This document shows, one piece after another, positions 19,768-32,000 of a DNA stretch of 32,000 bases (positions within the stretch are counted from its first letter, which is position 1; every line of letters begins with the position of its first letter). The DNA is from Akkermansia muciniphila ATCC BAA-835. Lineage in GTDB: Bacteria; Verrucomicrobiota; Verrucomicrobiia; Verrucomicrobiales; Akkermansiaceae. The DNA is taken from assembly GCF_000020225.1 (NCBI RefSeq), contig NC_010655.1, forward strand, positions 1,920,001 through 1,952,000, in the 5' to 3' direction. A program made the position numbers and the translations under genes. The notes beneath the pieces are model-generated. The model saw only the letters and a list, made by a program, of their open reading frames with translations. It did no database searches and was not told the DNA's origin.

Positions 19768-21012
19768 TTAACGGTCGCATTCGCCCATCACGAAGTCGAA
19801 GGAGCCGAGAATGGCCGGAACGTCGGAAACCAGGTGGCCTTTCATCAGTTCCGGCAGGATGGACAGGTTGCAGAAGGAGGGGGAGCGCATGCGCAGGCGG
19901 TTGGGAAGCCCGCCCCCCTTGGAGTCCAGGAAGAAACCCAGCTCTCCCTTCGGGTTTTCCGCGGCAAAGTAAACCTGCCCGGCAGGGGCGTTCACCCCCA
20001 TGGTCGTCGTCATGAACTGGCGAATCAGGGATTCCATGTCCGTCAGGACTTTTTTCTTTTCAGGCAGCGTGCCTTTGGTGTCCACCATGTTGATGGGGCC
20101 GTCCGGCATGGTTTCAATGACTTGGCGGATGATGCGCAGGGACTGGCGCATTTCTTCAATGCGCACGGTAAAACGGTCGTAGCAGTCTCCGTGTTCGCCT
20201 ACGGGGACGTCGAATTCGTAATTTTCATATCCCAGATAGGGGGTGAGTTTGCGCAGGTCCCGCTTAATGCCGCTGGCTCGCAGGTTGGCCCCCGTAATAC
20301 CCCAGGAAAGCGCTTTTTCACGGCTGATGACGCCTACGCCCTGAAGACGGTCAATGAAGATTTTGTTTTTGAGCAGGAGGGCTTCCGTTTCATCAAGGGT
20401 TTTGGCCGCTTCATCGCAGAAGACGAGCACTTCCTTGAGCATTTCATTGGGAACATCACGCGTCTGTCCGCCGATGCGGGTATAGGAGGAAGTAAAGCGC
20501 GCCCCAGTGAGCTGTTCGTAAAAATTATGGATTTTTTCACGTTCCTCATAACAGTACAGGAAAACGGTCATGGCGCCTACGTCCATGCCGTACACGCCTA
20601 CGCCCAGGATGTGGGAGGAAAAGCGGGAAAGTTCCAGGGCCAGTACGCGCAGGGCCTGTCCGCGGGGCGGCAGTTCCCATCCCAGCAGTTTTTCCACCGC
20701 GCAGGCATAGGCGATGTTGTTGGACAGGGGGGCCAGGTAGTCAAAACGGTCGGTGTAGGGAACAAATTGGTTGTACTGGATGGTTTCGCCTATTTTTTCC
20801 ATTCCGCGGTGCAGATGGCCAACCACCGGATCACAGCTGATGATTTCTTCACCATCAAGTTCCAGCACTAGGCGCAGCACGCCGTGGGTGGCGGGGTGGG
20901 AGGGGCCCACATTCAGGGTCATCGTTTCTCCGAGCGGTTCGGATGTATTGGTGAGATAGTCTGCGTTAGCGGCTGTATCTGCAATGGCGAAAGTTTTGGT
21001 GCTCGTCTTCAT
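19768..21012 (-). CDS. nuoD: NADH-quinone oxidoreductase subunit D (49-kDa subunit); first gene of the cluster
   Basis: It has MTLNVGPSHPATHGVLRLVLELDGEEI and the C-terminal FDFVMGECDR. At 414 aa it is NuoD only, not a NuoCD fusion. Confidence 0.95.
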   Translation of the reverse strand: MKTSTKTFAIADTAANADYLTNTSEPLGETMTLNVGPSHPATHGVLRLVLELDGEEIISCDPVVGHLHRGMEKIGETIQYNQFVPYTDRFDYLAPLSNNIAYACAVEKLLGWELPPRGQALRVLALELSRFSSHILGVGVYGMDVGAMTVFLYCYEEREKIHNFYEQLTGARFTSSYTRIGGQTRDVPNEMLKEVLVFCDEAAKTLDETEALLLKNKIFIDRLQGVGVISREKALSWGITGANLRASGIKRDLRKLTPYLGYENYEFDVPVGEHGDCYDRFTVRIEEMRQSLRIIRQVIETMPDGPINMVDTKGTLPEKKKVLTDMESLIRQFMTTTMGVNAPAGQVYFAAENPKGELGFFLDSKGGGLPNRLRMRSPSFCNLSILPELMKGHLVSDVPAILGSFDFVMGECDR

Positions 21013-21202
21013 GTGGATGTCCGTGCCTGGCTGAACCTGATAATGGTGCCGGATGATTATGCCACTTCACACCATGCGGGCAAGCCAAATGTCAGTTTTT
21101 TTGGCATTCCGGGGAGGTGGTGCGCGAGTCTCCTCAACTGATGAATGTTAGTCCTTTCTAACAATAAGCTTTTATATGGAACCTGCCGAATATGGGAAAA
21201 AG

Positions 21203-21420
21203 CGGATTAGGAATCCGGAGTCAACCTACAAATTTGAGAAAAAATAATTTAATGCAAATTTGCTCAGTTATTTCCGAATGGCGGGTGCCGGGAAAACAGG
21301 GCTGCCGGGCCTTATGGCTGGACGTGTCCGAACGCAGCGGAGGAGAATCTTCTTCCTTTGTAGCCGGCCTCCCTGCGTAGTCCTTTTCGGGATTCACGTT
21401 ATATGCGGATTCCTAATCCG
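21203..21420. repeat. 15-bp inverted-repeat pair bracketing a 188-bp segment (candidate inverton or operator pair) upstream of the CDS at 21434
   Basis: CGGATTAGGAATCCG at 21203-21217 and its exact reverse complement CGGATTCCTAATCCG at 21406-21420. The right copy ends 13 nt before ATG 21434. Each copy is itself a dyad, CGGATT-N3-AATCCG. Confidence 0.6.
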
Positions 21421-21433
21421 TTAGGAAAAAAAT

Positions 21434-22789
21434 ATGTTGAAGCCGAGGAGAATTTTTGTCTTTCCCATTGCTGTAACATTTTCAGTATTATTTATTTTAT
21501 ATATTATTTCATGGTTTTCCCCTATTGCCGGGGATTCCTTTATTCACGACAGGACGGGGTACCTTGGGCAGTTTCATATCCGCCATGTCTGGAAGGCCTG
21601 CGTGGACAGTTACCTGTATTGGAATCCCAGGCTGGGGGAAATGGCTGCGTTTTTTATTACTTCTGCTCCCCGGCTGGTCTGGACGGTCTTGAATCCCGTG
21701 TTTGTGCTTGCCCTTGTTCTTGGCCTTTATGTGCTCGCTCTGGGGAGAATGCCCAATCTCCGGCGGGAGTGCGGAGCATGGACGTGGTTGTTTGCTTTAA
21801 GCATGTTCGTCTCAGCCGGGGTAACCGTTTATTATGTCTGCCTGACACGCGCAGGCTCCATGAATTATGTGTGGACCGGATGCCTGATCGTATGGTTCAT
21901 GAATATTTACAGAACCAGGTGGGGGAAGCGGATAACCTCCCCTCGATGGGGCCTGTCCTCAGGATGTCTGATTTATGGGATTTTCTGCGGCGCCTGTAAT
22001 GCAGGGGCGACGATAGGAATGGCGGCGGCGTTTTGCATCATGGCCGCGGTCGGCATGTTCCGGGACCGCAGGGTGGGCGCTTATGTATGGTGCGGGTTTG
22101 CCGGCGTTGCGTTGGGAGGCCTGTTTCTATTTGCCGCCCCCGGTTTGTATTCGCGGCTTGGCCATGATTTGGGAGCGAGTGAAGTTTTGAGGAAGGGCGG
22201 TTTTTGCGCCTATGCGGAGTCTTTCGGGATATTGCTTTATTACCACGCGAGGATGTTGTGTAAAATATATGCCGTTTCCGCAGTATTAACGGGATTTTTG
22301 TTGTTCAGCGGCACGGAGCGGTGCCGGGAAGTAATCAGGAAGGAAAAGGAATCCTTCTTTTATATTCTTTTTTTATTGTTGCTGGGGTTCATCATGTCCG
22401 TTTGTTATTTTCCGGTGTGCATTCCCGCCCATCATGTTCAGTTCGTGTCGTCCCTGCCCGTTTTGGCGGCGTCAACCGTGTTGTTCTCCGTATTGTACCG
22501 GAATGAGATCATGGTGCGCGGATTGCGCGCGGTGACTGTTTGCCTTGCCGGAGCGACTTTGTTTTTCGGGGTGGTGTTCGCCCTGGAGTATTATCATGTA
22601 GGCTCTCAGGCTTTCCAGAGAGAGGAACTGATTCATAAGGCCTTCCAGGAGGGGAATCTGGAACCGGAAGTTCCTTCCATCTCTCCTCTTTTCTTTGAAG
22701 GAAAAGTGTCCGGAACGGATGGGAATTGGGGAGGGCCGGATACCAACCGCCGGTTTGGCATCCGCAAACTGGTGGTGAAAAAGCCCTGA
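21434..22789 (+). CDS. Polytopic inner-membrane protein, GT-C-like / DUF6056-like (function tentative)
   Basis: The 451-aa ORF has about 10 or more hydrophobic segments. An acidic first-loop motif PIAGDSFIHD followed by YLYWNPRLGE resembles GT-C glycosyltransferase and DUF6056 membrane proteins. No alignment was possible here. The overlapping ORF 21403..21999, in another frame, was rejected. Confidence 0.7.
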   Translation: MLKPRRIFVFPIAVTFSVLFILYIISWFSPIAGDSFIHDRTGYLGQFHIRHVWKACVDSYLYWNPRLGEMAAFFITSAPRLVWTVLNPVFVLALVLGLYVLALGRMPNLRRECGAWTWLFALSMFVSAGVTVYYVCLTRAGSMNYVWTGCLIVWFMNIYRTRWGKRITSPRWGLSSGCLIYGIFCGACNAGATIGMAAAFCIMAAVGMFRDRRVGAYVWCGFAGVALGGLFLFAAPGLYSRLGHDLGASEVLRKGGFCAYAESFGILLYYHARMLCKIYAVSAVLTGFLLFSGTERCREVIRKEKESFFYILFLLLLGFIMSVCYFPVCIPAHHVQFVSSLPVLAASTVLFSVLYRNEIMVRGLRAVTVCLAGATLFFGVVFALEYYHVGSQAFQREELIHKAFQEGNLEPEVPSISPLFFEGKVSGTDGNWGGPDTNRRFGIRKLVVKKP

Positions 22790-22799
22790 GGGAAAATGG

Positions 22800-24266
22800 C
22801 TATTTGACTATGTTCCGGGGAGTGAAGTGCATTTCCTGTTCCTCGATGCCGAATTGCCAGGTGGCCGTTTGCCACATGTTGACAGCAGGATTTTTCCAAC
22901 GGACCTGGACGGTTACGGGGCTGAGCCGCAGGGGACGGGAGGGAGTCCATTTCAAAATTTTTTCCTTGGCGTCGTACCGGGCGTTTACCAGGCCGAAGCC
23001 GGAGACGCGCATTTCCATTTGCTTGGGTTCCAAGGAGGGTTCCCCTGCCAGGGAAATGGATATATCGGGAGTCTGGTTTTTCACCACGGTATTGGCGGCC
23101 GGATAAACGGGCTGGGCCGGGGCCGGGTAGGAATTCATCTTTTTCCCGCTGCTGTTGCCAGGGGTGGCCGCCGGAGTTTCCGGAGTGGAGGGAACGTTGA
23201 AATTCAGGGCTCTGGTAAATGTCTTAGGGTCTTTGCCGAAGACCATGTAGCGGTGAATCCGCCAGCGGTCCGTGTCCTTGGTCACTTTTTTGGGGATTAC
23301 CGTAAAGGCCGCCTGGAATCCGGCGTCTTCCGCCTTGGAGATCATTTCCGGCAGGATGAAGCCGCCAGGATAGCAATAGGCCTCCACGGAAGAACCGGGG
23401 AATTTTTCCTGAAGGATTTTCCGGGAATTGCCTATTTCCGCCGTTGCCAGATCCAGAACCGCTTGTGTACCTTTCCGCTGGGCGGCCCTCCAGGATCTTG
23501 GGTACAGGTGGCTGACGGAGTGGCTGCCCAGGGTGGCGCCGTTATTCAGCATTTCCTGAATCTGGGCGGGGCTCATGGCAGAACCGCGGCCCGTGATGAA
23601 TTTGGTGTATGGGAAAATGGTAAAGGGGAATCCCGTTTCTTTCAGGATGGGATAGGCGTCCGTGTAGACGCTCTTCCAGCCGTCATCGATGGTGATCATG
23701 ACGCATTTGGCCGGAAGCTGCCTGTCCCCCAGTTTCCATTCCAGGAATTCCTTCATGGAGATGACGGGCACTCCGGACGCCTTCAGCGCCTGCATCTGAG
23801 AGCGGAATACATCCGTATTCATGCGCATTTCCGTAGCGGGAAGGGTGCGGCTGAAATCATGGTAACCCAGAATGGCTACGCGGGTTTCAGGCTGAGGAAC
23901 CGGAACGGGGGAAAAAGCCGTGGAGGGAATGGCAAGGGGTGCCTCCGCAGGTTGTACCGGGGCGTGCAGGTTCGTTTCCCCGGGAATGGGTTCCGCGTTA
24001 GGGATGGACTCCGCCAGGGGAGCGGAAGAGCCTGTCTCTCCGGGAATGGGTTCCGCCATGGGGATGTATTCATCCTTGCGGTTGGCTTCAATCAGGTCTT
24101 TGACGGGAACGATGCCGGCGGCCGGGTTTCCCTTGATGGTTCCCCCGATGACCGGGCCGGGAGCAAAGGGAAGGGGAGACGCCGGCGGCAGGTCGGGCGG
24201 AAGCTCCGCACATGCGACACCGGCTGCGATCAAGAAAACGGAAAGGAGGCCTGGGACGGAGCGCAT
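22800..24266 (-). CDS. Secreted polysaccharide deacetylase (CE4 / NodB homology domain) with a Pro-rich repeat linker and an unknown C-terminal domain
   Basis: The signal peptide is MRSVPGLLSVFLIAAGVACA. CE4 motifs are present: MITIDDGW (the TFDDG-type), LGSHSVSHLY (HSxxH) and CYPGG. The antisense ORF 22827..24287 is a shadow. Confidence 0.88.
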   Translation of the reverse strand: MRSVPGLLSVFLIAAGVACAELPPDLPPASPLPFAPGPVIGGTIKGNPAAGIVPVKDLIEANRKDEYIPMAEPIPGETGSSAPLAESIPNAEPIPGETNLHAPVQPAEAPLAIPSTAFSPVPVPQPETRVAILGYHDFSRTLPATEMRMNTDVFRSQMQALKASGVPVISMKEFLEWKLGDRQLPAKCVMITIDDGWKSVYTDAYPILKETGFPFTIFPYTKFITGRGSAMSPAQIQEMLNNGATLGSHSVSHLYPRSWRAAQRKGTQAVLDLATAEIGNSRKILQEKFPGSSVEAYCYPGGFILPEMISKAEDAGFQAAFTVIPKKVTKDTDRWRIHRYMVFGKDPKTFTRALNFNVPSTPETPAATPGNSSGKKMNSYPAPAQPVYPAANTVVKNQTPDISISLAGEPSLEPKQMEMRVSGFGLVNARYDAKEKILKWTPSRPLRLSPVTVQVRWKNPAVNMWQTATWQFGIEEQEMHFTPRNIVK

Positions 24267-24458
24267 ATCTGCAACTACTATTTTTAAGTTTTCTGTTCAA
24301 CCTTAAACTCAGGCAGGCATGACAGCCTGTTCCGTGCCGCGCGCGTTTTTTCCGGGGCATGTCTGGATTTTCCCGTTTGAATGCGTTATCGCTAAAAAGC
24401 ATGCAGACTCATTTTCCGCTCGCGGAAGAAAGGAGAGGCGTTTAGTCTGTCTGCAGAC

Positions 24459-26072
24459 ATGAGCTGTATTTGTCATTTCTTCAAAGTTCTGGCGCGCCGT
24501 GCGGGTCTGCTCACTGCCGTAGCTGCCGCCGCTTTTTTCCTGGGGGCTCCCGCCGGTGAAGCTTCGGCCCGCACGGCGGCTCCCGCTTATCCGGCCGCGG
24601 AAGTGGGGGGGGAATCCCAGTACAGCCATTTTCCCATTCCTCTCAATCATTACAATCCGGTGCCGCCGGATGCCAGCCTGTACCAGGTGCTTAGTGAACG
24701 CAACAAGCAGTCCGGCGGTTTCAACCTGGCAGTGACGCTCGTTTTCTTCGGCGCTATTATCCATACGTTTCTGGCTGGCCGCTTTGAGCGTTATTCCCAT
24801 AAGCTGGCCCTGCGCTATAAGGAAAAGCTCAAGGAAACCAACTTCCGCGTGATGCATCCGGAAGAGCGCCTCCCGGTTTCCTTCGCGTCCGCCATTTTCC
24901 ATTTTCTGGGAGAAGTGGAAGCCGTGTTCGGAATCTGGCTTATCCCTTTCATGTTCGTGTGCTGGAAGTATTATTCCTTTGAGGATTTTTCCGCTTATTT
25001 GAATTATGACTGTTCCTTCACGGAGCCGATGTTCGTGATGATTATCATGATTATCGCTTCTTCCCGCCCTATTTTCAAGCTGGCGGAATATGTCGTGAAC
25101 TGCGGCGCCAGGCTTGGGAAGGCCACGCCGGGCGCGTGGTGGATTTCCGTGATGTGCCTGGCTCCCTTGCTGGGGTCTCTGATTACGGAACCTGCCGCCA
25201 TGACGATCGGGGCCCTGATCCTAAGCAAGAAATTTTACGACCTCAAGCCGAAGAAAACCTTGATGTACGCCACTCTGGGGCTTCTCTTCGTGAATATCTC
25301 CATCGGGGGCACCCTGACGCACTTTGCAGCTCCGCCCGTAGTGATGGTGGCGGAAAAGTGGGACTGGGGGCTGGCTCACATGATCCAGCATTTCGGATGG
25401 AAGGCCGTTTCCGCCATCGTCATTTCCAATTTGGCGTATTTTCTCCTTTTCCGCAGGGAGTTCGCCCGCCTGGCTTCCCAGCAGAGGGAGTTCGACGAGT
25501 TTGACGACGCCGTTCCCCAGTCCTGGGAAGACCGCAATGACAAGATACCGTTGTGGGTGACCCTGGCGCATGTCTGCTTCCTGGTCTGGACGGTTCTTTT
25601 TGCCCATGAGCCGGTCATGTTCATCGGCAGTTTCCTGTTCTTTATCGGTTTCACATTGGCTACGCCGCAATACCAGAACCAAATGTCTCTGCGTGTGCCC
25701 ATCATGGTGGGGTTCTTCCTGGCGGGGCTGGTCATTCTGGGCGGCGTGCAGGCCTGGTGGCTGGAGCCGGTGCTGACGCGGCTGGGGGACTACGCCATGG
25801 TCGGGGCTACGCTGCTGACGGCATTTAATGACAATGCCGCCGTCACTTTCCTGGCGTCTACGGTTCCCAACCTGCCGGAAGCCGTCAAATATTCCGTGGT
25901 GGCGGGTGCTGTGACGGGCGGCGGCCTGACGGTCATCGCCAACGCCCCCAATCCGGCCGGGCAGGCCATTCTGGGTAAATATTTCAAAGGCATCAATCCC
26001 CTGTGGCTGTTTGCCTGGGCGGCTTTTCCCACTGCCATCGTGTTTATTTTCTTCACCTGCTTCGGCCATTAA
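24459..26072 (+). CDS. Polytopic membrane transporter, putative Na+/H+ antiporter family (DUF1504 / Na_H_antiport_2-like, tentative)
   Basis: The 537-aa ORF has a signal-like N-terminus, many TM segments, and the motifs NDNAAVTFLAS and GGGLTVIANAPNPAG. The family assignment is from memory of that Pfam family only. Confidence 0.7.
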   Translation: MSCICHFFKVLARRAGLLTAVAAAAFFLGAPAGEASARTAAPAYPAAEVGGESQYSHFPIPLNHYNPVPPDASLYQVLSERNKQSGGFNLAVTLVFFGAIIHTFLAGRFERYSHKLALRYKEKLKETNFRVMHPEERLPVSFASAIFHFLGEVEAVFGIWLIPFMFVCWKYYSFEDFSAYLNYDCSFTEPMFVMIIMIIASSRPIFKLAEYVVNCGARLGKATPGAWWISVMCLAPLLGSLITEPAAMTIGALILSKKFYDLKPKKTLMYATLGLLFVNISIGGTLTHFAAPPVVMVAEKWDWGLAHMIQHFGWKAVSAIVISNLAYFLLFRREFARLASQQREFDEFDDAVPQSWEDRNDKIPLWVTLAHVCFLVWTVLFAHEPVMFIGSFLFFIGFTLATPQYQNQMSLRVPIMVGFFLAGLVILGGVQAWWLEPVLTRLGDYAMVGATLLTAFNDNAAVTFLASTVPNLPEAVKYSVVAGAVTGGGLTVIANAPNPAGQAILGKYFKGINPLWLFAWAAFPTAIVFIFFTCFGH

Positions 26073-26096
26073 TGGCCGAAGCGTACTGTCACTCTT

Positions 26097-26702
26097 ATGT
26101 TTACCGGACTCGTTGAAACAACAGGAACCGTGGAAGGATTTACGCCTATTAACGGCGGAGCCAGGCTGACGCTGACCATTCCGTTCGGCCGTGAACTTGC
26201 CCTGGGGGATTCCGTTGCCGTCAACGGATGCTGCCTGACGGTGGATGCCCTGGAGGGTGAACGTATCTCCTTTGATCTGCTTTCCCAGACTCTCCGCGTC
26301 ACCAGTCTGGGAACCCTCAAGCCGGGGATGCTGGTTAATCTGGAACGCGCCATGTCCGCCATGGACCGTTTCGGAGGCCACTTCGTGATGGGGCATGTGG
26401 ACCATACCGGTACGATTGCCGCTCTGGAGCCTGCAGGGCAGGATCACCGTTTGGAGGTGCGCATTCCGGAGGAACTCACCCGCTATTGTATTGACAAGGG
26501 TTCCATCACCATTGACGGCATTTCCCTGACCATAGCCAATTTGAGCGGCTCTCTGCTGGAGTTCTGGATTACGCCCCATACTTTCGGCCGCACGAATCTG
26601 CAGAATTCCGTTCCCGGCCAGCCGGTCAATCTGGAAGTGGATATGCTGGCCAAGTATGTAGAGAGACTGTTTTCTGCCCGTGAACAACGTGCGGAGGGAT
26701 AG
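26097..26702 (+). CDS. ribE: Riboflavin synthase (alpha chain)
   Basis: It has MFTGLVETTGTV..., two lumazine-binding repeats (GDSVAVNGCCLTV; GSITIDGISLTI) and NLEVDMLAKY. Confidence 0.95.
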   Translation: MFTGLVETTGTVEGFTPINGGARLTLTIPFGRELALGDSVAVNGCCLTVDALEGERISFDLLSQTLRVTSLGTLKPGMLVNLERAMSAMDRFGGHFVMGHVDHTGTIAALEPAGQDHRLEVRIPEELTRYCIDKGSITIDGISLTIANLSGSLLEFWITPHTFGRTNLQNSVPGQPVNLEVDMLAKYVERLFSAREQRAEG

Positions 26703-26895
26703 TCCTGCCCGTGTAAGGAGAATCACATGCCGGGCATGCGGGCTGGTTTTTCCTGCCGGACAATGAAAGTGCATTCCTGTTTTCTGTAGCAGGGGTGCCG
26801 GGATGCGGAGATTTTTGAACTGGAAGCCGGGTATTGCTGTTCCGATGAAGGAAGGGCCGTGAGGGCGGAACAAAAATGCGGAGCGGATCTATTTG

Positions 26896-27756
26896 CTACC
26901 GGGCCATTCCTCCCTTTGCCGTAATCCATTTCCCGCGTTTGACGACCCGTTCAAAGAACAGACCGTGACGTTCCGCTGCCGTTTTCGTTTCTTCCCACTG
27001 GGAAGCCAGAATGCCGGAGATGACCAAAGCGGCATCCTTCTTCATGGCGGCGATGATTTGTGGAAAAGCCTTTTGCAGTATGGTTGAAAACAGGTTGGCG
27101 ACGACAAGGTCACCCTGCTGGGACTCCGAAGGTTTCCATTTGAAGACGTCTTCCACAAATAAGTCCAGCTGTTCCGCCGTAACGGCGTTGCGGACCATGT
27201 TGTGCCGGGCCACTTCAATGGCCATGGGGTCAAAATCGAAAGCCGTGGCGTGCTCCGCCCCCAGCTTCAGCGCCGCCATGGCCAGCACGGCGGTTCCGCA
27301 GCCTATGTCCGTCATGCTCCATGATGTTTTTCTGCGGGATTTGGCAGCGTCGCAGATAAAACGCAGGCAGGTGGATGTGGTAGCGTGGTCTCCTGTTCCG
27401 AAAGCCATTTCGGCGGGAACGCTCAGGATGCAGCGCGAGGGGAACTGTTTCTGCAGAGCGGCCAGATTCTCCGGAGAACTCTGCTCCGTAATGACCAGTG
27501 CGTCCCTTATTTTGAGCGGAGGGCGTTTTTCCCGCTTCTGGGTCGCTACCCAGTCCTGCGTCTTGATTTCCCTGACAGTTCCTCCAAAATATTTTTTCAA
27601 GGCCAGGGCGTCTTCTTCATCATCGCAGTAAACGGTGATTCGAACCGTTTTCCCCCCCTTGATTTTTGTAATAACGGCGTTCGGATTTCCGGCGATGCGT
27701 TCGCTCCAGGCATCTTCCCATTTGGCGGCGGAAAGTTTGTTCCAACTCCATGTCAT
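26896..27756 (-). CDS. prmA: Ribosomal protein L11 methyltransferase
   Basis: It has MAFGTGDHATTSTCL and the SAM-binding motif DIGCGTAVLAMAALKLGA...AFDFDP. The length (286 aa) is typical. Confidence 0.9.
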   Translation of the reverse strand: MTWSWNKLSAAKWEDAWSERIAGNPNAVITKIKGGKTVRITVYCDDEEDALALKKYFGGTVREIKTQDWVATQKREKRPPLKIRDALVITEQSSPENLAALQKQFPSRCILSVPAEMAFGTGDHATTSTCLRFICDAAKSRRKTSWSMTDIGCGTAVLAMAALKLGAEHATAFDFDPMAIEVARHNMVRNAVTAEQLDLFVEDVFKWKPSESQQGDLVVANLFSTILQKAFPQIIAAMKKDAALVISGILASQWEETKTAAERHGLFFERVVKRGKWITAKGGMAR

Positions 27757-27919
27757 GCAGAAAGTATGGGATTTTTCCGTCAGGGAGGCAAGAATGGATT
27801 GATTGTAACTGCATTCTCGCAGTTTTTGGGATTGTGTGGCTCTATTGTTGAAAATTTGATTTATTCAAAGAAGAATATAAAGCGTCAACTATCAAACCAT
27901 TTTATTTTCAGTATGGTTG

Positions 27920-28080
27920 CGAATTTGGAATCCGGAGTAAAGATTATTTTTTTATATTCAATGGCCAACCTGTAAGAAGAGGAAGGAATCTTGTTCTGTT
28001 TCAATCTTTTTTTCTAACAATAATTCATTGATTGTTATTTTGTTGTTTTGAATTTCGAATAACAACGGATTCCAAATTCG
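27920..28080. repeat. 15-bp inverted-repeat pair bracketing a 131-bp AT-rich segment (candidate inverton or operator pair) upstream of the autotransporter gene
   Basis: CGAATTTGGAATCCG at 27920-27934 and its exact reverse complement CGGATTCCAAATTCG at 28066-28080. It matches the repeat at 21203/21406 at 13 of 15 positions. The right copy ends 8 nt before the SD AAGGAG (28089-28094). Confidence 0.6.
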
Positions 28081-28099
28081 TACATTAAAAGGAGCGCGT

Positions 28100-31000
28100 T
28101 TGATATGCAAAAAACATCCAAATGTACAGATTATCATGAAATTATTTGCTTTTGCCATGTTGTCCTTGGTTCCTTTAGTTACTGTCTGTTCCGTTTTTTC
28201 CAAGGAAGTGGATATTTATTCAGGAACATATGGAAACGATGATGTGGAAGTATTCCAGCCGGAGGAAGTGACGTATCATCTGGCCGGAAGGGATGGCGTC
28301 TTTTATGAAGGTGCGTTTACGTTTGATAATTATAATCCGGACAAGGGCGGCGCCGGAAACAGGCAGGGTGTTTTCTCCGGCTATAGTACACATTTTTCCA
28401 GCACGGAAGGAACGTCTCTCGGCTTTCACTGTACCGGGCTTAATCCCGGAAAGAACAGTTCCGCTTCCAAATCTTTTATTTTTGTCATGGGGCCATGGGA
28501 AAGCGGGGAGGAGTTTGTCGCTCCTCAGGTTACTTTTCAGAATTTGGGCGATTTGAGCTTCATTGCGGATAATATGGACATGATCGGCATTACCGATGGC
28601 GCCACGGCCGGAACCGGTGGCGGGAGGTACGGGAAAGCTGATATTGTTTCTTTCAACAATGTAGGAAATATCGAATTCCGGGGGCTGAATCATGGGGGTA
28701 TAGGCTTCAGCCGTTTGAATTCCTTGGCTTTTACCAATACCGGGGATATTTCTTTTACGGATATGAAGATGGGATATTCTTCCAATGGCGGTGCCATTTT
28801 TATTAACCAGGGGGGGGATTCTTCCCTTTACTCCAATCCTGGAGATGGGAATATTTCTTTTGACCATACGGGAAATATTATCTTCAGGAATCTTGTTAAA
28901 ACTTCTTATTACATGAGTTCTGCGGGGATTTTTACCAATGAAGGGAGTATTTCATTTAATGATACGGAAAATATCCTGTTTGAAAATAACACGTCCACCG
29001 GAGGACCTGCGGCGATAGGCATTGGATCCATATTCTTACCGGATAACCAGCCGTCTTTGTCGTTTAGCAACATCCGGGGAGATATTATTTTTAGAAATAA
29101 TAAGGCTTCCGGAGGGAGCATGCCGGGGATGGCGGGCGCTATCACTATTTATGGATCTTTTAAGCTGGTGCAAACGGGTGATGTCCTGTTTGAAAATAAT
29201 GTGACTGATAAAAATACGGCCGGAGCCATTTATTGCGGCAATAATGAAGGGAAAAGGTTTGGAGGGCAATGGCTTTTGTCTGCGGATGGCGGGAATATCG
29301 TTTTCCGAGGCAACTTGGTTAAAGGAAGTTCGGGGGTCTTTGCCCGCGCCCTGGGGATTTTTGCTTATGCTCCCGAAAACGATTATACGGGCATATCTCA
29401 GCCCAATGGGAATTTAACCATGGATTTCCGCGCCCAGGCCGGACGAGAAATTGTATTTTATGATGGTATTGATATTGAAAGTATTACTGTAGCCATGCCT
29501 ACCCTGCATATTAACAGAATTCCGGCCGATTGGGCAGATTATGGAGGTATTCCTGTGGAGTTTGGAGGAACCGTGCGTTTTTCCGGTGCATTGACGGAGT
29601 CGTTTCTAGTTCGCAATGACGGGGAAAGTGATGGTGATTACGCGGAACGGGTGGAGACCTCCCGCAGGGTGAAACTTGAATCAAATATTATTGTGGAAGG
29701 GGGACGGCTGGTTCTTGAATACGGCATGAACCTGGCGAATGAGAGTGGGGATGTATGGCAGGGAAGTTCAAGAGTGGAGCAGGACAAACCGGTGTTTAAC
29801 CTGGCCGGCGGAGTGCTGGAAATGACGTCCGGTTCATCCATCAGCGCCCAGCAGGTGATTGTTTCCGGCCATGGCAGCGGCGCTATCCTGCGGGTGGGAG
29901 CCGCTCCCATCGGTTCCGACAGTTGGGAGGGGAAGACCTATGAACTGCCTTCCCTTTCCGCTGTCACCATTGACATGTCCCACGGGTTTGACTGGGATCT
30001 CATGCCTTTCTCGGAACGGGGGGACAGCGGTATCAACATCACCGCCTCCGGGGAATTTTTACTGGGGGGAACCATTGGAATTGCGGATACGCTGGATGAT
30101 TACGCCTCCGCCGCCTGGGGAAGGGACAGGGAGTTTGTCATTTTTAATATGGATTCTTCCAGCAAACGGCCGCAAGGAGAGCTGAAAGGGGTTATTTCCA
30201 ATACGACCCAGTCATCCACGGTTGATTCTCCCTATACCTACGGCGGTACCTGGGAATATGAATGGCGCGACATGGATGGAGATGGAGAAGATGACCAGCT
30301 GTTGGCAATTTGGAAACATGAAGCCGGATGCCGCCCGGATCAGGTCCGTCCGGAGCAGGCTGGAGAGCTTGCTCTCAATTCCCTTTGGAGTTCCGCTTCA
30401 AACGCGGCTTCTCTTGGGAATACTGCGTTGGCGCAGTTAACCCCGGTGCGGTTGTATCAGCGGTATGCACGCAATGTATGGGGAATGGGGCTGGGGGATT
30501 TCGCCCGCCAGCGTTCCCGGGGCGGCGTAGATGGTTATGACTATGACGGGGGCGGATATTCCGTTGGCATGGATTCCGATTTTGGAGGAAAGAGCGGGAT
30601 ATGGGGGATAGCGTTCGGACAAATGCACGGTTTCAGCAGGAGCCGGGATTTTAATGGGAGGATTACCCAGGATTCCCTGATGGGGAGCATTTATTGGGGG
30701 CGGATATTCCGCTCCGGCGAGCGTTCCCTGTGGACGGTGAAAGCCGATCTTACTTGGGGAATGACTGATAACTGCATGAAAAGCCGGTTCAGCAACGGTA
30801 TGGACGCTCATGGGGAATGGAACAACAGAACGTGGCTGGTCCAGGCGGAAGTTTCCAGAAGCATTCAGTATGCAGGAGGATGGACTGTGTCTCCGTTTTT
30901 GAGGATGGAGTTTACACATGGCACGGAGGCTTCTTTTCTTGAAGACGGCAGCTATGCCAGAAAATTTGAAGGAGCGGTTTTGCGCCGGTTGTCCATCCCG

Positions 31001-31300
31001 GCAGGTGTGAGTGTTGAGAGAAGTGGTGACTGGAAAGGCAGGCACTGGATGCAGGTGCTCCGCCTTTCCTATGTGGGAGATGCTATTCAGGATGTGCCGG
31101 AGGCTTCCGTTTACAGCATATACAGCGACATTTTCTGGAGGGCCCGTGGTGTCCAACCAGCCCGCCATGCCGTACGCGTGGAGTATGATGCCGCCTTGCA
31201 GTGGAATGACCGCTGGACGGTTTATGCCGGTTATGGCATGGAAGCCCGGGGAAGCTCCGTGTACCACCGCATAAATGCGGGCGTATCCAGGGCGTTTTAG
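28100..31300 (+). CDS. Autotransporter outer-membrane protein with a Pmp-type (GGA[ILV]/FxxN) beta-helix passenger
   Basis: The signal peptide is ...MKLFAFAMLSLVPLVTVCSVFS. About 7 Pmp-like repeats span aa 180-420 (NGGAIFI, IIFRNL, ILFENN, IIFRNN..AGAITI, VLFENN..AGAIYC, IVFRGN). The C-terminal roughly 300 aa form a beta-barrel domain ending GVSRAF with a terminal aromatic residue. TTG 28100 lies 5 nt after AAGGAG; an in-frame ATG at 28136 is the alternative start. Confidence 0.88.
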   Translation: MICKKHPNVQIIMKLFAFAMLSLVPLVTVCSVFSKEVDIYSGTYGNDDVEVFQPEEVTYHLAGRDGVFYEGAFTFDNYNPDKGGAGNRQGVFSGYSTHFSSTEGTSLGFHCTGLNPGKNSSASKSFIFVMGPWESGEEFVAPQVTFQNLGDLSFIADNMDMIGITDGATAGTGGGRYGKADIVSFNNVGNIEFRGLNHGGIGFSRLNSLAFTNTGDISFTDMKMGYSSNGGAIFINQGGDSSLYSNPGDGNISFDHTGNIIFRNLVKTSYYMSSAGIFTNEGSISFNDTENILFENNTSTGGPAAIGIGSIFLPDNQPSLSFSNIRGDIIFRNNKASGGSMPGMAGAITIYGSFKLVQTGDVLFENNVTDKNTAGAIYCGNNEGKRFGGQWLLSADGGNIVFRGNLVKGSSGVFARALGIFAYAPENDYTGISQPNGNLTMDFRAQAGREIVFYDGIDIESITVAMPTLHINRIPADWADYGGIPVEFGGTVRFSGALTESFLVRNDGESDGDYAERVETSRRVKLESNIIVEGGRLVLEYGMNLANESGDVWQGSSRVEQDKPVFNLAGGVLEMTSGSSISAQQVIVSGHGSGAILRVGAAPIGSDSWEGKTYELPSLSAVTIDMSHGFDWDLMPFSERGDSGINITASGEFLLGGTIGIADTLDDYASAAWGRDREFVIFNMDSSSKRPQGELKGVISNTTQSSTVDSPYTYGGTWEYEWRDMDGDGEDDQLLAIWKHEAGCRPDQVRPEQAGELALNSLWSSASNAASLGNTALAQLTPVRLYQRYARNVWGMGLGDFARQRSRGGVDGYDYDGGGYSVGMDSDFGGKSGIWGIAFGQMHGFSRSRDFNGRITQDSLMGSIYWGRIFRSGERSLWTVKADLTWGMTDNCMKSRFSNGMDAHGEWNNRTWLVQAEVSRSIQYAGGWTVSPFLRMEFTHGTEASFLEDGSYARKFEGAVLRRLSIPAGVSVERSGDWKGRHWMQVLRLSYVGDAIQDVPEASVYSIYSDIFWRARGVQPARHAVRVEYDAALQWNDRWTVYAGYGMEARGSSVYHRINAGVSRAF

Positions 31301-31323
31301 GAAACGTCAGCACGGATAGAAAA

Positions 31324-31358
31324 AAGGGCACGTTTTCGAAGGAAACGCGCCCTTTTTT
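31324..31358. terminator. Bidirectional rho-independent terminator shared by the autotransporter gene and malQ
   Basis: AAGGGCACGTTT (31324-31335) pairs with AAACGCGCCCTT (31343-31354) as a 12-bp stem with one mismatch. It is flanked by an A-run upstream (31321-31325) and TTTT downstream (31355-31358), so a U-tract follows on either strand. Confidence 0.8.
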
Positions 31359-31395
31359 GATACTGCGGGGGGGATGTTCCGGCAGGGGGGGACAG

Positions 31396-32000
31396 CTACA
31401 ATGTTTTGCCGTTCGGCCACATCAGCATCCGTTTCAGGAAGCGTTCGTTGTTGACGGTGATCTTCGGGAAGAGGCGTTTGCTGGATTCCTTGAGCGCCCT
31501 GATGGCGTCTTCACCCTGCAGCGGCGTGCGGCCAGATTCGTCGATGATGGTGCGCAGCCATGCGGTCTGTGGCATGCCGCATGCTTCCACGGCCTTGAAG
31601 GGCATGCGTTCCCTCCAGTTGGTCCCTCCCGTAGTGCCGGGAATATTGAGCCGTTTGTTGATGCCGAAGAGAGCAGGCCAGAGAATGGCCGCATAACGGG
31701 AACGGGAACGGAACAGAGCGTTGTACATGGCCGTCTTGATTTCCTGGTTCCAGTAGGAAAGACAGGTTTCAGGCTGCATGCCGGAGAAATCCGCAAACCA
31801 TTTCAGAAGGCGCGCTCCGTCCTCCGCCTGGCGCACGATGTTTTCCTGTTCCGGGCTGGACGGCGTTTTTGGGGAGCCGTTCTCCCACAGGCCCAGCTTG
31901 CGGGCGCGTTCGATTTTCGCGTAGCTGTCGTTCCATGTCTGCATGATGGTTTCGAAATCATGCGTTCCGAACGCCGCAAAGGAGCATTCGTGATATTCTT
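31396..32000 (-). CDS. malQ: 4-alpha-glucanotransferase (amylomaltase, GH77), C-terminal part; the gene runs off the right edge
   Basis: The reading frame stays open upstream of the tracked Met to position 32000 (...EYHECSFAAFGTHDFETIMQTW...). It carries GTHD and the C-terminal NIPGTTGGTNWRERMP motif typical of MalQ. Confidence 0.8.
   Translation of the reverse strand, partial: EYHECSFAAFGTHDFETIMQTWNDSYAKIERARKLGLWENGSPKTPSSPEQENIVRQAEDGARLLKWFADFSGMQPETCLSYWNQEIKTAMYNALFRSRSRYAAILWPALFGINKRLNIPGTTGGTNWRERMPFKAVEACGMPQTAWLRTIIDESGRTPLQGEDAIRALKESSKRLFPKITVNNERFLKRMLMWPNGKTL

Follow-up and report, generated by a model that had tools for sequence, protein, structure and literature searches.

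Akkermansia muciniphila is under development as a probiotic, its strains differ in gut colonisation, and phase-variable surface structures are one proposed reason for these differences. In strain ATCC BAA-835, the gene that diverges from nuoD encodes a predicted membrane glycosyltransferase, and 188 bp of the intergenic region in front of it are bracketed by short inverted repeats, which raises the question of whether this segment is a DNA switch, for which gene, and in which orientation that gene would be expressed. Here we address this question in a window of 32 kb (the whole stretch of 32,000 nucleotides analysed), together with orthologous loci, species-representative genomes and human-gut metagenome contigs. 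The region 21203-21420 is very likely a genuine inverton of A. muciniphila that works by the switch mechanism proposed below.

Inverted-repeat arms and their conservation

The first-pass annotation of the window had described a 15-nt left arm (L1) and its exact reverse complement (R1) flanking 188 bp, with R1 ending 13 nt before the start codon and AGGA in between. A re-reading of the sequence agrees on every point, the flank between R1 and ATG 21434 being TTAGGAAAAAAAT, which includes the AGGA (Table 1). The sequence also agrees with the further observation that this site matches the one at the autotransporter locus (the sister inverton) at 13 of 15 positions, only two being different, and that GAGT stands next to the gene-distal arm at both invertons. 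Two CAAATTTG boxes are located at 21229-21236 and 21255-21262.

Sites of the L1 type, allowing up to three mismatches, occur eight times in the window against 1.22 expected, a count that none of 100 shuffles attained. We calculate that 32 kb should contain about 0.04 perfect inverted pairs of 15 nt spaced by no more than 1.5 kb; two are present, and they share the same motif. On sequence statistics, a chance origin of the inverted-repeat pair is considered excluded.

Table 1. Coordinates of the features of the switch locus and its neighbourhood, in window positions
Feature	Position	Strand	Description and evidence
nuoD	19768..21012	-	Divergent neighbour, first of an 11-gene NADH dehydrogenase cluster; Pfam Complex1_49kDa, 1.2e-112
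nuoD promoter (sigma-70-like)	21056..21083	-	TTGCCC-16 nt-(TG)CATAAT; outside the invertible segment, between left arm and ATG; same site in L003
Left arm L1	21203..21217		CGGATTAGGAATCCG; dyad CGGATT-N3-AATCCG with asymmetric centre AGG
Invertible 188-bp segment	21218..21405		Exact reverse complement between unchanged flanks in L003 and 9/42 metagenome contigs
Conserved element abutting L1	21218..21265	-	GAGTCAACCTACAAATTTGAGAAAAAATAATTTAATGCAAATTTG; common to 9 family members; kept in orthologues, the rest of the interior having diverged; minus strand is an AT-rich tract ending TTGACTC at the repeat
Right arm R1	21406..21420		CGGATTCCTAATCCG; exact reverse complement of L1
6.5-kb block	21421..27919		Glycosyltransferase, polysaccharide deacetylase, Na+/H+ antiporter, riboflavin synthase and PrmA genes; inverted whole in some genomes by R1 x L2
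Switched gene	21434..22789	+	Predicted 451-aa DUF6056 / GT_STM0557_N (GtrC-like) GT-C-fold membrane glycosyltransferase; Pfam PF19528 and AlphaFold2 model
Sister inverton	27920..28080		Arms CGAATTTGGAATCCG at 27920-27934 / 28066-28080; 131-bp interior; upstream of autotransporter gene
Autotransporter gene behind sister inverton	28100..31300	+	Pfam Autotransporter beta-domain, 1.3e-38

The sequence of L1 is unchanged in 30 of 48 orthologous loci. Its central trinucleotide, AGG in 32 loci, is TGG in the other 16 and is matched by a compensating partner arm in all 48, an identity between the two arms that is predicted by a crossover region which must be identical in both recombining partners. The first-pass annotation had left room for repeats that are not conserved where the flanking genes are; the opposite was found in orthologous loci whose proteins are 79-81% identical, where the arms are retained along with the seven bases that follow (GAGTCAA) and the rest of the interior has diverged, in one case (L005) almost completely.

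Further variation was observed in and around the arms. Three contigs (L029, L049 and L054) differ from window 21203-21420 in both centres together (AGG/CCT versus TGG/CCA), with differences of 0-1 bases over flanks and interior, a pattern that suggests a concerted replacement of both arm centres, with the arms of the sister inverton, which have TGG centres, as possible exchange partners. Between L006:2769-2987 and L007:2769-2987, the inner half-sites, which carry G/A and C/T variants, are swapped as a single inversion would swap them, and the orientation of the interior is the same. Finally, TTCTAACAAT is found exactly twice in the window (21156-21165 and 28012-28021) against 0.01 expected, one copy lying 38 nt outside L1, where it is conserved in orthologues, and the other inside the sister inverton; it was considered as an accessory site of the whole family and rejected, being missing from six other family members.

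The switched gene and its product

The protein encoded downstream of R1 had been described from its sequence as a GT-C-like membrane protein, and profile and structure searches point the same way. It matches PF19528, whose newer annotation is GT_STM0557_N, with 110.2 bits (cut-off 27; E = 1.4e-31) over residues 5-418, and an AlphaFold2 model built on 41 sequences has a pLDDT of 87 and a pTM of 0.90. In a structure search, each of the 11 best PDB matches is a GT-C enzyme (STT3, AglB or ALG12; probability 0.96-1.0), with modest TM-scores of 0.35-0.47 (0.49 for Pmt4, at rank 25) and E-values of 3e-3 to 5e-2. The switched product is predicted, from its family and model, to be a GT-C-like glycosyltransferase. 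The gtrA (flippase) and gtrB (bactoprenol glucosyltransferase) genes are not adjacent to it, its neighbours being nuoD and the polysaccharide deacetylase gene.

An identical protein is deposited as ACD05435.1 ('DUF6056 family protein [Akkermansia muciniphila]') and is present on 786 contigs. Judging from gene order, the switched gene is probably Amuc_1615: in the window, whose GC content is ~56%, eleven nuo genes are followed by the genes for the glycosyltransferase, polysaccharide deacetylase, Na+/H+ antiporter, riboflavin synthase, PrmA, autotransporter and GH77, and the type-strain numbering in the literature assigns the NADH dehydrogenase cluster to Amuc_1604-1614 and GH77 to Amuc_1621. 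Amuc_1615 is not mentioned, and the locus not described individually, in the searchable literature, a body of text that does not extend to the tables of published inverton catalogues. The one paper listed for DUF6056 deals with serine recombinases and phage defence. A scan of species-representative genomes with peptide patterns from the glycosyltransferase protein found no relative, probably owing to patterns that were too strict or to masking of the source region.

A second type of variation was seen at the autotransporter gene behind the sister inverton, in the A-tract that follows ATG 28105 (28100-28140): the window has A6, which puts this ATG out of frame and leaves TTG 28100 in frame, and L032 has A5, with the ATG in frame. 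This A5/A6 tract may constitute a slipped-strand layer on top of the sister inverton.

Both orientations occur in human-gut assemblies

An exact-protein look-up retrieved a 531-kb human-gut contig (L003) in which flanks identical to those of the window enclose the exact reverse complement of the 188-bp interior. Metagenomes scanned for the nuoD-side flank together with the left arm yielded 42 human-gut contigs, in which every junction was classified against the window: 32/42 have the window orientation, 9/42 are inverted, and in 1/42 the left arm is joined to unknown sequence. The first-pass annotation had read the region as a second member of the sister inverton's family, controlling a putative surface-glycan-modifying membrane protein, and had proposed the search for both deposited orientations as its test; both are indeed deposited, with identical flanks.

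Three contigs (L008, L065 and L067) end at or inside an arm. Two more (L030 and L069) diverge in mid-interior into unrelated high-GC sequence; they were treated as chimeric assemblies, and only their left junction was used. In L066 (4056-4107), the left arm of the 21203-21420 inverton is joined to unrelated ACGTCAATATCAGTTTTTCATACC, which resembles the motif end of another inverton, and the contig ends 28 nt further on; this junction could be a product of recombination with a distant site of the same motif.

A conserved element abuts one arm and probably fires outward

Nine family members share an element that starts directly at one arm and reads GAGTCAA-n-CTACAAwwyTGAGGrAAAAG-n-ATTTGG. Their interiors range from 131 to 486 nt and are otherwise unconserved, and the distance of the element from the arm is always zero. 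This fixed position next to interiors of variable length argues that the element probably fires outward through the arm. Family genes pointing away from the arm start 13-55 nt outside it, and, in our reading, the gene-side flanks have an A at +3 in 9 of the 10 read (at +2 in the autotransporter flank) and TA at +2/+3 in 7 of 10 (at +1/+2 in the autotransporter flank), as in TTAGGA, CTAAGT, GTATAT and TACATT. On the opposite flanks, again in our reading, an A stands at the matching offset in 1 of 10, and several have T-runs.

We propose the following mechanism. The two 15-bp sites (CGGATT-NGG-AATCCG), in inverted orientation, would be recognised by a site-specific recombinase encoded elsewhere, which would flip the 188 bp between them reversibly, and the conserved element of ~48 bp just inside one arm would be the promoter part, firing outward. 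In the window orientation the element faces nuoD, so that the gene for the GtrC-like GT-C glycosyltransferase, which starts 13 nt past the opposite arm, would be OFF; inversion would place the element next to this gene and turn it ON, resulting in phase-variable modification of a surface glycan. We infer from the sequence that the window represents the OFF state of the glycosyltransferase gene and the nine inverted contigs its ON state. The promoter might moreover be split, with a mobile -35 (TTGACT) inside the segment, the 15-bp arm within a 17-nt spacer, and a -10 hexamer starting with TA on the fixed gene-side flank, an arrangement that is possibly new.

The first-pass annotation had placed an AT-rich, promoter-like part at the end far from the coding sequence, to be brought adjacent by inversion. 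The AT-rich tract and the boxes are located as it said, and their promoter nature stays putative. A consensus scan for sigma-70-type promoters gave no match either within the segment or at the junction made by its inversion, and the proposed -10 hexamers (TAGGAA, TAAGGA and similar) are without the usual final T. No known RNA families were found in 20900-21600. An arm hairpin with a U-run was also considered as a terminator on the OFF side; at about -5 to -6 kcal/mol it is no better than in shuffled sequence, with insignificant z-scores, and is kept as a weak idea.

The most serious competitor to this scheme accepts the same invertible element and gives it the opposite polarity or another mode, either inward firing across the 188 bp, in which case the window would be ON, or an orientation-dependent terminator or leader acting on transcripts from elsewhere, as in the cwpV and flgB switches of Clostridioides difficile. 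Most gut-metagenome contigs (32/42) have the window orientation, which speaks for this reading, and several features are neutral or helpful to it: a canonical outward promoter was not detected in the consensus scan, the CAAATTTG boxes are palindromic and hence give no direction, and the difference between flanks with and without T-runs is predicted equally by inward and outward firing. However, an element held at zero distance from the arm in 9/9 members, next to unconserved interiors of 131-486 nt, is a misfit with a long variable leader, and no plus-strand promoter-like site was found by the consensus scan between nuoD and L1. We regard opposite polarity or mode as unlikely, if well worth keeping in mind, and outward firing as the better account.

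The possibility had also been raised that the orientation of the segment influences the complex I operon. This finds no support, since nuoD has its own conserved sigma-70-like promoter outside the segment, between left arm and ATG, which does not vary in the orthologues L005 and L006; read-through may occur in the window orientation.

Inversion of the segment is recurrent

Among the ten inverted contigs (nine from the metagenome scan and L003), eight have a forward twin with 0-1 mismatches over ~1 kb of flanks and interior, and such inverted/forward twins represent at least six haplotypes in two lineages. Inversion of the 188-bp segment is recurrent and not one old event, as the opposite orientations on these near-identical backgrounds indicate. 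Furthermore, at the beginning of contig L001 the reverse-complemented gene start abuts the GAGT end of the interior, a junction that exists only in the inverted state; the contig then continues into a junction that exists only in the forward state, and its combination of the two implies that both states were present in one sample.

A fixed structural polymorphism, in which the segment was inverted once or a few times and strains differ without any switching within a lineage, would suit the nature of the data, which are assemblies with one consensus orientation each and not reads of a clonal culture. It is nevertheless very improbable in view of opposite orientations arising at least six times, in two lineages, on backgrounds with 0-1 differences per kb, and of the two junction types joined in L001 from a single sample. 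Moreover, switching of cps1, the capsule inverton of A. muciniphila with the same motif, a sister locus and the best-studied member of the family, has been demonstrated experimentally in culture as well as in mice and humans (PMC13343947).

Recombination between neighbouring invertons

In three of the 42 metagenome contigs (L035, L045 and L062), what follows the right arm is the left flank of the autotransporter inverton in reverse complement. The alignment of L062 to the window consists of 20269-21417 (+), 27934-21406 (reversed) and 27920-31509 (+), the inverted block corresponding to L062:1138-7633, and this contig contains the two reciprocal hybrid arms, CGGATTCCTAATTCG and CGGATTTGGAATCCG. 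The first of these, the R1 hybrid arm after recombination with the sister arm L2, is found in both L035 and L062. The reciprocal hybrid arms of this R1 x L2 inversion show, at the level of sequence, that a single recombination system uses the arms of either inverton as substrates. The exchange in L062 maps between positions 9 and 13 of R1. Hybrid arms were considered as a guide to the crossover point and allow no firm conclusion, since L006 and L007 have arm variants that seem to have changed places although the interior is not inverted.

It is scarcely credible that the dyads, each a near-palindrome CGGATT-N3-AATCCG, are operators of a dimeric DNA-binding regulator and the apparent inversions assembly artefacts, given that ten independent contigs from different studies and assemblers have a base-exact inversion, that a 15-nt repeat is shorter than assembler k-mers so that a flip needs read support, that the 6.5-kb inversion is complete with reciprocal hybrid arms, and that partner arms occurred only in Akkermansiaceae in the species-representative scan.

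At this locus, three or more sites recombine in alternative pairings (L1 x R1, and R1 x L2 in L035, L045 and L062). All arms are intergenic; reading frames are intact, and no coding segments of one gene are reshuffled. In L062, the start of the glycosyltransferase gene is set against the GAGT-motif end of the autotransporter inverton, so that, within the proposed mechanism, the 6.5-kb inversion would place this gene against the equivalent end of the sister inverton. We tentatively put forward that the two invertons, 6.5 kb apart, form one four-site module and not independent ON/OFF switches, that R1 x L2 recombination re-pairs promoter ends with genes, that the ~30 genome sites of the same motif could recombine into programmed larger rearrangements, and that the promoter is possibly split between a mobile -35 and a fixed -10; this combined picture is conceivable, and we hold it with less than even confidence. 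Recombination between neighbouring invertons may be new. In practice, tools that score each repeat pair separately will misread states with the 6.5-kb inter-inverton inversion.

Family membership and distribution

CGGATT..AATCCG is cited in two papers, PMC13343947 among them, as the inverted-repeat motif of the invertons that Jiang et al. 2019 found in Akkermansia. Both arms of 21203-21420 match it exactly and the host is A. muciniphila; by its sequence, the inverton is a member of this known family. In a published grouping, the family is inverton group 138, with 32 members in strain ATCC BAA-835 and a promoter-like internal motif; the groups for which that study names a link to an invertase group or a nearby invertase do not include it (PMC11892184). 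In the window, no recombinase domain was found in the scanned ORFs (Pfam/NCBIfam), which comprise all genes flanking both invertons and most others, the internal nuoM-nuoF excepted.

Scanning species-representative genomes with arm plus GAGT gave eight Akkermansia/Akkermansiaceae loci, seven of which have an inverted partner 150-500 nt away, the eighth match being at the end of its locus; an inverted partner arm accompanied 0/10 matches in other organisms. Two other family members each differ in orientation between species-representative genomes when a shared flank is taken as reference, one between L010:3907-4087 and L026:1350-1533, the other between L015:4592-4890 and L025:4097-4612. At another Akkermansiaceae member (L018:6584-6934), a tandem extra copy of the arm is located 21 nt from the first, and genes point away on both sides.

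A sister lineage (L012:1-5300, from an uncultured Akkermansia sp. MAG, and L036, L043 and L055) shares the nuoD-side flank, the arms and the conserved element. Past its right arm, only ATGTTG is left of the glycosyltransferase gene, followed by a cluster of three TerD-domain and two VWA-domain genes, with one unassigned ORF between the first two TerD-domain genes. Both orientations occur in this lineage too. The use of the same switch with a different cargo may be new.

Meaning and comparison with known systems

The locus offers a specific, testable case, in which DNA inversion would toggle the expression of a lone GtrC-like glycosyltransferase beside a polysaccharide deacetylase. The minority orientation accounts for about one fifth of gut-derived assemblies, and the defined pair of junction sequences is of practical value for PCR or read counting.

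In Escherichia coli, the fimS switch is inverted by the FimB/FimE tyrosine recombinases, whose genes adjoin it. The A. muciniphila element is like fimS in having a segment of a few hundred bp, in its case a putatively promoter-bearing one, short inverted repeats, and an ON/OFF surface structure as the likely target. In contrast with the dedicated adjoining genes of fimS, no such recombinase gene is adjacent to 21203-21420, nor was one found among the scanned genes of the 32-kb window.

The polysaccharide promoter invertons of Bacteroides fragilis, reportedly flipped by the global serine invertase Mpi (Krinos et al. 2001), are closer in kind: many short, dispersed, invertible promoters with a shared repeat, acted on in trans, linked to surface glycans in a gut commensal. 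They differ in phylum and in repeat sequence. The Bacteroidetes-type promoter is TAnnTTTG; at 21203-21420 neither this promoter nor the Bacteroides repeat consensus is present, the arms being CGGATTNGGAATCCG and the host a verrucomicrobium.

The R64 shufflon is a multi-site inversion system, and shufflons reshuffle coding segments. The likeness lies in the use of more than two sites and of various pairings among them (L1 x R1 and R1 x L2 in this case), whereas at the A. muciniphila locus whole genes and promoter-gene pairings are rearranged, with no fused reading frames.

STM0557, after which the Pfam family of the switched protein is named, is the gtrC of Salmonella, involved in O-antigen glucosylation, and gtr operons are phase-variable via Dam methylation and OxyR (PMC2909390). 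Both systems would thus subject a GtrC-family glycosyltransferase to phase variation, but that of Salmonella is epigenetic, while the A. muciniphila switch is a DNA inversion without adjacent gtrA/gtrB.

The nearest relative remains the cps1 switch, with which the inverton shares its organism and motif, its short length, its intergenic position directly upstream of a surface-related gene, the presence of both orientations in gut populations and the lack of an adjacent recombinase gene; the difference is one of cargo, cps1 fronting a capsule locus and 21203-21420 a lone, predicted GtrC-like GT-C glycosyltransferase.
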